Origin: Escherichia coli
Lineage (GTDB): Bacteria > Pseudomonadota > Gammaproteobacteria > Enterobacterales > Enterobacteriaceae
DNA length: 64,000 nucleotides
Assembly: GCF_045037415.1 (NCBI RefSeq)
Contig: NZ_CP173438.1
Direction: 5' to 3' (one strand)
This document shows, in pieces, positions 49,401 through 52,400 of the stretch. A program made the position numbers. Within the stretch, counting starts at the first letter, position 1. The number at the start of each line of letters is the position of its first letter.

Positions 49401-52400
49401 CCAATTTGTCGATGGCTGAGTCCAACACCGTATTTAAGCCTAAGAATTTCTTTAAGTTTTCTCATAGAAATTGGAACTGTTGGCATAGGTATCCTTTACC
49501 GGAATGGCAAAAGATACAGATCAACACACCTGTGAAGTTCCAATAACATTGATGGAGATCACTGAATAACAAAATGAGTCAAAAGTGATCTCCATCGATG
49601 TTATTCAGCGATCTGTTCAAATGTTATTACCCGATCTCGATGGAAGTTATTGAGTGATCTCCTTTCATGAAAATACGCATACGTTGTTGGACACGCTCCA
49701 GGTTGTTCAGCCCGGGCGTTTGGGTCGCAGCTGAGCGCTTGTTTCACGCTCGCTGCTTCCACGTTAAAGCCAGTAAACAGAACCGCCAGAAATAACATCA
49801 GGGTATGTAAACGTTTCATTGTAAATATTCTTCCGTTGTAAATGGCGCTGGAAAATTTCTCATCAGTGAAACCTTCCGGAAATTCCCCCCCCTTGTATGA
49901 TGTATATCGCCAGTATTTTATTTCATCCCGGATGTAATTTTTATATTTCCCGGCACGTGCAATAACGCTGACCAGAGATATAAGGCTCATTAATAACTTT
50001 ACAGGTAATTGCATAATTAAATTTCCAGTGAGTGAATTGACAGGTGAGGGGTAAAACTTTCTCTCAGGTAATATATATCTGAAAATATTTTCAATAACAC
50101 CAGCCAGGAAAAACACCACCACAGGCGGTGGCGTTTCTTTGGGGCGTCTTTATTTAATCCGGGCCATCGCGTTTCTCAGTGCCAAATCTGCCTCTTCCGT
50201 TATCTCCAGACTTTTCTGCAACACCGTTTCTGACCGGGACAGTACCTGACGTGCTGCCAGCGGTTTCCGGATATGCTCCATCGTCAGCATCGTGTCTTCA
50301 TAGCCCTGCTGACGCCAGGCGTCGGTATGTGCCAACGTGAAACTGAGCAGACCGCCGCTGTTGTCACCATCACCTGCATATTTCAGCCTTTTCCGGGGAC
50401 GGATCTCAAGGATTGTGGTGACCGGAAAAGCCTGGCGATCCCATAAAGAACCGTCACTCAGATGCGTCACAATCACCATATTGCATCCGGCATCGACCAG
50501 AGGCGTCACAGGGGTATTTCCCTGCATATTTCGCCATCCTCCCATACCACCATCACCGAACATTGTCCCCTGAACCTCACGGGGACGGAACAGCAGGGGC
50601 AGCGCGGCTGACGCAAGCAGAGCCTCTTTCTGCTGTCCGCGGGGCAGGCTCTGGATATGCTGAAAAACGGCGTTTTTCGTGGTTCCGGCACCCAGTTCAG
50701 CACGAATGCAGTCAATAATATCCTGCATGCCCCCTTCTGTGGGGTACAGCGACACATACAGCGGTAGCCCGTCTGCCAGAGCATCAGTATCAAGATAATG
50801 ATCCAACAGCGCTGTCAGGGGCTCATCTGACAACAACGGCTGAGCCATCAGATTGTCAAACCCGTTGAGTATCGATATATGGCGAAGAAGCGTCGTAAGC
50901 AGTGCTCCTGCACGTCCGGGGATCTGGCAGAGGTTCATTGCCTGGAACAATTTTTTCAGCAATGAAAAGTAAACCAATCGGTTTACCGACAGCACCTGAT
51001 TATTCCCCAGATGATCCCAGAGCGCCTCCAGGCGTACGGCAGCTTCTGACAGATCGGGAGAGGCCGCGATAATGGCACCATTGAATGCGCCAATGCTGGC
51101 CCCTGAAACCATGCTGATCTGTGTACCACACTCTGCCAGTGCCTTAACCACTCCCGCCTGATAAGCGCCCACCGCCCCGCCACCGGACAGCACCAGCCCC
51201 GTTTTCATTTCTGTACTCATCCAGCCCCCTTCTGAAATATTTCATCGACCATACTTTCAGAGAGGCGTTCTGCAGAGCAGAGGCGAGGCATGCGAACCGG
51301 TAAGTGTTCTGCAGCCTGCGTGGTTGACCAGATCACCGGATGCTGCTCTTCACTGCACCAGTCTCCCAGCCAGTTAATCGCGTCATGCCACTCGTTATCT
51401 GCCTGCTCCCGGCCCTGACCACCAAGCCAGTCCAGAGTGTTCAGACGCACGGTTGCACTACCGCCACTCTCCTGTGCCATCTGCGTTAATGCTTTATGTC
51501 TGAGAATATCCAGTAGCTGGTTAACCTGGCCTGTTTCGCCCTGACGTATCACATCACCAAACGCGCCCCAGCGAAGCTCTTCAAGCGCCACATAACAACG
51601 TCCGGCAGGGGAAAATGACGCATATCGCCCGGCGCTCCACCATGAGAATATCTGCTCAAGATGTAACTGCGCCCGCTGAACCTGGTCAACACGGTGGAGT
51701 TTTTCTTCAAGATGATTCAGTTTATGGTGAACCTGATCGGCCAGGATGAGTAACTGCTCCCGTGTATCTGCGGAATAATGCGCCAGCCTGGCAGTATCAC
51801 TGACCAGTGAACTGACCCTGTCGTTTACCCGGGTAATCGCGTAGTTTGTGGTGGCAAGTGACGTTGTCAGCTCCGTCAGCCAGCGCAGGGACGCCTCAAG
51901 GCCCTGTGCAACCGAAGCATTGATGGCATTCTGCCGTGCAGCGCCTTCGCCGGTCAGTCCCTCTTTTAAACGCCGGAAGAACGTGCGCTCTCCGGCCGTG
52001 CGGATATGCTCCTGTGCAACATCGATTCCGTTTGCGAAATCAACCACAAATTTTTCAGGAAGACAGGTGAGTACCTGACATACCCGGTTATCAGCAATTT
52101 GTTGAATAAATGGTGAAGTCACAGCATTGTCTCCAGCTCTTCCCTCAGCGCCTTACTGTCAGTAATGAGCTCAGGAACCCTTTCATTTAATGCCTGAAGT
52201 CTCCTGGTAAGCCGTTCCTGTGCCTGCTGATCGCGTTTATGATCTTCAGAGCTCTGAATCAGCGTGTTACGCAGTTGTTCAACTTTCTCCCTGAATGCGC
52301 AGAAAAAGGCATCGATTTCCTGGCGGACGGGCTGGTTAATATCCTGCTCAATGGATGCCTGCAGCTCCCCGAAATATGCCCGGGTCAGTGACATAACTTC

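Follow-up and report, generated by a model that had tools for sequence, protein, structure and literature searches.

Closest described systems

The closest described relatives of the genes treated here are RdcA (CrfC, YjdA) and RdcB (YjcZ) of Escherichia coli K-12. RdcA, a soluble cytoplasmic protein, dimerizes and binds RdcB tightly in two-hybrid assays, and its binding to the MASE1 domain of the diguanylate cyclase DgcE needs GTP hydrolysis; RdcB is needed in vivo for DgcE activation and binds neither DgcE nor itself (Pfiffer et al. 2019, PMC6510439). A related pair lies in a 64,000-nucleotide (nt) stretch of E. coli DNA (contig NZ_CP173438.1 of assembly GCF_045037415.1; hereafter the window), where it is joined to a third gene that codes for a patatin-like phospholipase. 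This three-gene module is an accessory, horizontally mobile paralog of the core E. coli RdcA-RdcB pair, and the subject of the present analysis is its middle gene, which codes for a protein of 301 amino acids (aa). The three genes are as follows.

52119-54503, minus strand: dynamin-family GTPase gene, 794 aa, island-borne paralog of RdcA/CrfC (YjdA)
51217-52122, minus strand: RdcB-like gene, 301-aa YjcZ/RdcB-family protein, putative noncatalytic partner subunit
50150-51220, minus strand: patatin-like phospholipase gene, 356 aa, with a predicted C-terminal helix of about 60 residues

The family already has a name and the three-gene arrangement has already been noticed in the literature, with a role that is putative. 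In a 2026 transcriptome paper, no other gene cluster was induced as strongly in Kapi1 lysogens as this type of operon, and its authors gave an identity of about 30% to the core RdcAB proteins and suggested a putative defense system (PMC12922286). A second 2026 paper merely lists the operon genes on an O118 island. Single components of the module also recall other systems. Eleos (LeoA/LeoBC) and the LeoABC proteins of enterotoxigenic E. coli include an island-encoded dynamin-family GTPase with a proposed role in phage defense or vesicle release. In the cyclic oligonucleotide-based antiphage signaling systems (CBASS) with CapV, which is activated by cyclic GMP-AMP, a patatin-fold Ser-Asp lipase is the output of a multigene module on mobile DNA. 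Finally, DynA of Bacillus subtilis is a dynamin-like GTPase tied to phage resistance at the population level, according to the account that PMC12922286 gives of Guo et al. 2022.

The 301-aa protein belongs to the YjcZ/RdcB family

The original prediction, made from the sequence of the window, had called the 301-aa protein an orphan, a label that has to be withdrawn. The Pfam model YjcZ (PF13990) matches residues 26 to 296 along its whole length (positions 1 to 272 of 272; E = 2.5e-71, 240.6 bits), the identity to E. coli K-12 YjcZ/RdcB is 31% over 281 residues (E = 1e-38), and the Prokaryotic Genome Annotation Pipeline (PGAP) names the protein "diguanylate cyclase regulator RdcB family protein" (WP_000203551.1). 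Homologs at an E value of 1e-3 or lower number 549. The family is small, with 466 clusters at 50% identity in a representative library of 1.84 billion proteins, nearly all of about 300 aa. Clear homology to a known family thus exists, although to a signaling accessory and not to a housekeeping enzyme, the case that the prediction had set as its own counterexample. It was correct, on the other hand, that the protein lacks a transmembrane helix (its highest Kyte-Doolittle 19-residue mean [KD19] is 0.96) and any P-loop or catalytic motif, since GxxxxGK[ST], GxSxG, HExxH, and CxxC are all absent from it.

The core residues of the family (K24, F25, V27, D28, W162, G165, R175, C176, W232, P262, P279, and R286) and the core motif EELRWGxFGD (residues 181 to 190) are present in the 301-aa protein and conserved both in the clade linked to patatin and in the clade that is not. 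Residues common to the two clades fall mostly in the C-terminal domain, whereas those that the patatin-linked clade alone conserves are, with few exceptions, within residues 21 to 149. The AlphaFold2 monomer model is all-helical, with a mean predicted local distance difference test (pLDDT) score of 76, a long helix at residues 59 to 164, and a confident C-terminal domain; residues 1 to 80 are poorly determined (pLDDT of about 50) and are, judging from the model, candidates for folding upon binding. A Foldseek search of the model against AFDB50 retrieved members of the same family and then nothing better than an E value of 2, a sequence search of the PDB gave coiled-coil noise (best E = 0.03), and none of the NCBIfam models matched the protein.

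The GTPase-YjcZ pair is conserved and one clade carries a patatin

We scanned one genome per species and re-annotated the resulting 79 loci with phmmer. An RdcA-like GTPase gene lies directly upstream of the YjcZ homolog in all 79, where the contig extends that far. A patatin gene with an intact Ser-Asp dyad follows directly downstream of YjcZ in 34 of them, from Gammaproteobacteria and Betaproteobacteria, while the other 45 are of the two-gene RdcAB type, and all the named ones are Enterobacteriaceae. The three-gene loci come from Enterobacterales (Escherichia, Pantoea, Erwinia, Serratia, and Budvicia), other Gammaproteobacteria (Pseudomonas, Allochromatium, Thiodictyon, Thiorhodospira, Marinospirillum, Pontibacterium, and HdN1), and Betaproteobacteria (Macromonas, Aquaspirillum, Paenacidovorax, Gallionella, Yanghanlia, and members of the Comamonadaceae); separate look-ups also found the three genes in Allochromatium, Methylomonas, Pectobacterium, Klebsiella, and two distant metagenomic members. 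In a neighbor-joining tree, the two- and three-gene architectures are reciprocally monophyletic, and the enterobacterial three-gene sequences are those nearest to the two-gene clade.

The gene junctions are conserved as well. GTPase and YjcZ genes overlap by 4 nt in 26/35 three-gene loci and in 37/46 two-gene loci, and YjcZ and patatin genes overlap in 28 of 36 (by 4 nt in 16 and by 8 nt in 12), so that stop/start overlaps exceed what chance would give. This conservation across related loci supports the translational coupling and coexpression that had been proposed for the window operon. A search for a fourth conserved gene found only one that recurs, a regulator with a helix-turn-helix (HTH), WYL, and WCX architecture, located upstream and on the same strand in 6 of the 34 three-gene loci. 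These six loci represent five genera (Gallionella, Aquaspirillum, Pseudomonas with two loci, Macromonas, and Paenacidovorax), and the regulator and GTPase genes of Gallionella directly adjoin each other. Their positions within the respective loci are given here.

L040, 3591-4523: WYL regulator
L017, 2392-3285: WYL regulator
L011, 373-1272: WYL regulator
L014, 1613-2512: WYL regulator
L010, 1561-2577: WYL regulator
L029, 2827-3864: WYL regulator

Several loci depart from the common arrangement. A metagenome contig of 1.44 Mb (L091, 7001-9630) codes for a 532-aa protein (P0177) in which a YaaW/DUF3944-like, partly hydrophobic N-terminal domain precedes a complete YjcZ; the patatin gene follows with a 4-nt overlap, and parE and parC, but no GTPase gene, lie upstream. 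In a metagenome-assembled genome (MAG) labeled Synergistaceae (L044, 1290-6356), a 1,688-aa protein with two P-loops, in which two complete RdcA-like GTPases are fused in tandem, is followed by YjcZ and patatin, an arrangement that fits a GTPase working as a dimer. Methylomonas koyamae (L004, 7617-7916) has an additional 99-aa open reading frame (ORF) without a Pfam match between GTPase and YjcZ, also found on contig L005. Identical YjcZ-patatin sequences were recovered from two MAGs of one sediment series (L021 and L022), labeled Gammaproteobacteria and Syntrophomonadaceae; the second label, which belongs to the Firmicutes, probably reflects an error in binning and not a real occurrence outside the Proteobacteria. 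Apparent dynamin-YjcZ and YjcZ-patatin fusions (P0004, P0188, P0055, and P0057) were rejected as internal-deletion chimeras of near-identical E. coli genes that are not natural.

Organization of the operon in the window

The coordinates and the length first assigned to the middle ORF are confirmed; it lies on the minus strand and starts with GTG. ATGA overlaps had been described on both of its sides, and this holds for the patatin junction (51220-51217), while the GTPase junction reads GTGA (52122-52119): the 3' end of the GTPase gene reads ...ATG CTG TGA, and the GTG within it is the start of the 301-aa ORF. The RefSeq/PGAP annotation of identical E. coli DNA has these three genes with these boundaries, which supports the GTG start, and the homologs of about 300 aa start at the equivalent position. 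The signals read from the sequence, all on the minus strand, are the following.

54562-54614, minus strand: promoter-like site TTAATA-18-TATCAT, overlapped by three CGATCGTT repeats (candidate operator)
52131-52134, minus strand: GGAG, Shine-Dalgarno-like site 8 nt before the GTG, within the GTPase gene
52119-52122, minus strand: GTGA stop/start overlap of the GTPase and RdcB-like genes
51217-51220, minus strand: ATGA stop/start overlap of the RdcB-like and patatin genes
50114-50130, minus strand: terminator-like hairpin (7-pair stem with 5 G-C pairs) followed by TTTTT

An AAGGGGG sequence lies 4 nt 5' of the patatin ATG. The GTPase start at 54503 is downstream of the promoter-like site, the hairpin 20 nt past the patatin stop is likely the end of the operon, and only the GTPase, YjcZ, and patatin genes are found between the two. 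CGATCGTT has five matches in the window, four of them at 54562-54600, and one repeat is within the perfect palindrome CGATCGTTATAAACGATCG. The cluster is kept in E. albertii and absent from other genera, and as a family-wide operator it was rejected, being confined to Escherichia. It is a candidate operator for some regulator and may be related to the reported induction in Kapi1 lysogens.

Both partner enzymes keep their active sites

Pfam Dynamin_N covers residues 71 to 276 of the GTPase (E = 2.3e-17). NCBIfam CrfC (NF007368) matches it over its full length with 549.9 bits, under the equivalog cut-off of 1,146 bits, and the identity to K-12 RdcA/CrfC is 34% (E = 7e-121). Its G1 (G75 to T83), G2 (T102), G3 (D235TPG), and G4 (N298KFD) motifs are at least 90% conserved in 30 homologs. 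In the 356-aa protein, Pfam Patatin (PF01734) covers residues 9 to 239 (E = 7.3e-25), and the oxyanion residues GGG13-15, the nucleophile motif G40-A-S42-I-G44, and D223-G-G are likewise at least 90% conserved (35 homologs). As far as these alignments indicate, purifying selection acts on the active sites of both enzymes. The highest KD19 value is 1.16 in the GTPase and 1.52 over all three operon proteins.

A motif rich in Trp and Gly, RRRRQSGLWGKICGAFGTSDWGWETY, lies at residues ~663 to 685, in the C-terminal half of the GTPase (about 52449-52517, minus strand). In the patatin-linked clade, conservation is at least 90% at R663, W668, G669, C672, D679, W680, G681, E683, and Y685, and the alignment of the motif to K-12 RdcA is poor. 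A membrane- or partner-binding loop could be its role.

The module compared with known systems

The module has two protein families, their gene order, and the stop/start overlap between their genes in common with K-12 RdcA/RdcB; the G1 to G4 motifs are kept (the catalytic threonine T102 corresponds to T103 of RdcA), and both small proteins have the C-terminal core motifs. However, the patatin gene is always attached here, the module is accessory and mobile instead of core, and residues 21 to 149 of the small protein have a different conserved pattern. A further difference is the promoter region, which contains CGATCGTT repeats here. The GTPase score, the missing NCBIfam match, the separate clades, and the coexistence with core rdcB, which is found in 5,414 of 5,426 complete E. 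coli genomes, set the 301-aa protein apart from RdcB proper at the level of orthology.

Eleos has neither a YjcZ-family nor a patatin component. The PADLOC LeoA model had no match among the operon proteins and LeoBC matched only 61 residues around the P-loop of the GTPase (E = 3.1e-5), so that by these models the module is not Eleos. It does not belong to CBASS with patatin either, since the operon codes for no cGAS/DncV-like nucleotidyltransferase or other nucleotide-signal synthase and the lipase scores 18.3 bits with CBASS_lipase (NF041079), under the cut-off of 200; unlike in CBASS, the lipase is presumably controlled via protein-protein contact with the GTPase complex. HTH-WYL-WCX is the architecture of CapW and BrxR, and the WYL regulators at some module loci are in this sense CapW-like, as with CBASS. 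DynA acts alone on membranes, without an RdcB-like or lipase partner, although the tandem double GTPase of L044 recalls its two heads.

Genomic context

The module is present in 2,610 of the 5,426 complete E. coli genomes, in up to five copies. In the window, it is located on a CP4-44-type island beside sbcB and dacD, together with RadC, antirestriction, DUF932, and CbtA/CbeA genes, a truncated YeeP-like GTPase gene, and copies of the insertion sequence (IS) families IS21 and IS66. The Pectobacterium module is on a CP4-44-type island as well, that of Pseudomonas aestuarii has a WYL regulator on one side and a DUF927/integrase pair on the other, and that of Allochromatium is between ileS and lspA, with Uma2 and Fic genes. 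It was also found on 44 plasmids of Escherichia, Klebsiella, and Enterobacter. No homolog was found in phage genomes, a result that is uninformative on function either way.

A GTPase-gated phospholipase as the proposed role

We hold with moderate confidence that the 301-aa protein is a noncatalytic RdcB-like subunit through which a GTP-dependent switch is linked to a phospholipase effector; conflict or defense is the probable role. By homology to K-12 RdcAB, the RdcB-like protein would be made in step with the GTPase, and the translational coupling fits coassembly of the two. It would then bind the GTPase through the family-wide C-terminal core (W162, EELRWGxFGD181-190, W232, P262, P279, and R286), and the nucleotide state of the GTPase would decide whether the complex engages its output enzyme, which in K-12 is DgcE and here would be replaced by the coencoded patatin lipase. 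Because the clade-specific constraint falls in the N-terminal half of the RdcB-like protein, this half is proposed to couple the complex to the patatin: residues 21 to 149 would be a patatin-clade-specific surface that may dock the lipase, perhaps via the lipase C-terminal helix. The original prediction had suggested a sensor or an adaptor. Homology speaks for the adaptor, as the output of K-12 RdcA depends on RdcB, its binding partner (PMC6510439), and gives no support to the sensor, as the signal-dependent step in K-12, GTP hydrolysis, is carried by the GTPase.

The whole would act as a GTPase-gated phospholipase effector module in a conflict or antiphage (abortive infection) context, a role that we infer from the mobile elements, the patchy distribution, the WYL regulators, the induction in lysogens, and the CBASS-like membrane-degrading effector. 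The L091 variant, which retains the YjcZ-patatin pair without a GTPase, leans toward coupling between these two proteins. Their cofolding was modeled with a linker-fused AlphaFold2 construct and 27 paired sequences, and judged by pLDDT and the predicted template modeling (pTM) score. In the fused model, residues 21 to 40 of YjcZ rose from a pLDDT of ~52 to ~68 and residues 71 to 100 by ~10 (10 to 18 points overall), and the patatin C-terminal helix of ~60 residues had a pLDDT of 80 to 90.

Several observations weigh against this proposal. The pTM of the fused model (0.56) equals that of the monomer, so that with modest pLDDT gains only, a contact is not established, and the YaaW-YjcZ fusion architecture is a single database entry. 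Among the PADLOC models, none matches the 301-aa protein, and the matches of the GTPase (LeoBC) and of the lipase to models for defense systems are weak and local. Several module loci are in ordinary chromosomal surroundings, and no effector other than patatin occurs in the loci seen, unlike in many modular defense systems. Lastly, the searchable literature (dynamin with patatin and defense, and PF13990) contains no functional study of the module.

Alternative explanations

The three proteins might instead form a nonimmune membrane machine, in which dynamin and lipase reshape or repair the inner membrane or release vesicles in the manner of LeoABC or DynA and the RdcB-like protein is an assembly factor. 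The Dynamin_N domain and the tandem GTPase of L044, similar to that of DynA, agree with such a machine, and a lipase generates curvature-inducing lysolipids. Roles of bacterial dynamins in vesiculation and membrane repair are also on record, through the work that PMC12922286 cites. However, by their KD19 values none of the three operon proteins shows a hydrophobic or transmembrane segment, RdcA is soluble (PMC6510439), and the patchy distribution on mobile elements and the WYL regulators suit a conflict system better; we regard this explanation as unlikely.

Control could also run in the opposite direction, the middle protein being an immunity- or antitoxin-like inhibitor that silences a patatin toxin, in a module that stabilizes its island or plasmid by addiction and does not sense phages. 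That the middle and lipase genes are tightly coupled in translation would suit an inhibitor, as would the one variant that keeps the YjcZ-patatin pair without a GTPase and the toxin-antitoxin pairs CbtA/CbeA and CcdAB that adjoin the module on islands and plasmids. This seems quite unlikely to us, considering that K-12 RdcB is a positive cofactor that makes no contact with the output enzyme (PMC6510439) and that a GTPase with intact motifs, needless in a two-part addiction module, is present in all loci but one.

It is improbable that the protein is simply a second RdcB that, with its GTPase, regulates DgcE or another MASE1 diguanylate cyclase and thereby cyclic di-GMP, with the patatin as a passenger. 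The RefSeq product name, the family membership, and the rdcA-rdcB gene order would lead to this reading, and the K-12 function is established (PMC6510439). Against it stand the identities of only 31% and 34%, the GTPase score of 550 bits versus the 1,146 of the CrfC equivalog, conserved residues in the N-terminal half that differ between the clades, and a patatin linkage in 34/34 loci of the clade, with overlapping reading frames. Moreover, the module occurs in Pseudomonas, Chromatiales, Methylococcales, Betaproteobacteria, and plasmids, and nearly every E. coli genome already has the core rdcB. Finally, there is practically no chance that the ORF is spurious or a decayed pseudogene, for which nothing but the unusual GTG start would speak, given the full-length family match, the 549 homologs, and the length and synteny conserved over two proteobacterial classes.

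Neighboring genes and insertion sequences

Just upstream of the operon, a 157-aa ORF with the P-loop GKSGAGKSS (54721-55194, minus strand), annotated by PGAP as a 144-aa "hypothetical protein," looks like a truncated or rearranged island GTPase of the YeeP/YfjP type. Just downstream of the patatin gene, istA/istB of the IS21-family element ISEc12 split a gene (47184-49486 and 49601-50122, minus strand) for a hypothetical protein with a signal-peptide-like start, MKRLHTLMLFLAVLFTG, which PGAP records as two pseudogene fragments; in strain 4/1-1, ISEc12 is present here as a tandem of two copies. On the Klebsiella pneumoniae IncR plasmid NZ_CP127520.1 (L088, 6977-9004), the 5' end of the GTPase gene is truncated by IS1, and its record name, "dGTPase," is an apparent misannotation of a dynamin-family GTPase.

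Significance for the RdcB family

RdcB/YjcZ has no known fold relatives or biochemical activity, and its sole described role is in K-12 biofilm signaling. About half of the E. coli genomes and many proteobacteria have a second, mobile GTPase-RdcB pair joined to an intact phospholipase, which offers a different and experimentally easy readout for the function of the family, namely, lipase activity, toxicity, and phage plaques. A shared origin is suggested for a core signaling pathway and a mobile, possibly defensive, effector module. A tentative and, in its full form, somewhat unlikely idea is that the three proteins are a previously unclassified antiphage or conflict system, in which a GTPase complex, depending on its GTP state, releases or activates a membrane-degrading lipase with the RdcB-like protein as coupling subunit, and that the core pathway from RdcA-RdcB to DgcE is its domesticated, lipase-less descendant. 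Such an idea agrees with the spread of the three-gene form over two proteobacterial classes, with the restriction of the two-gene form to Enterobacteriaceae, and with the tree, in which the three-gene sequences nearest to the two-gene clade are the enterobacterial ones. If the defense role is true, the known repertoire would gain a lipase system gated by a GTPase, and there would be an explanation for a cargo that is very common on the CP4-44-type islands of pathogenic E. coli.

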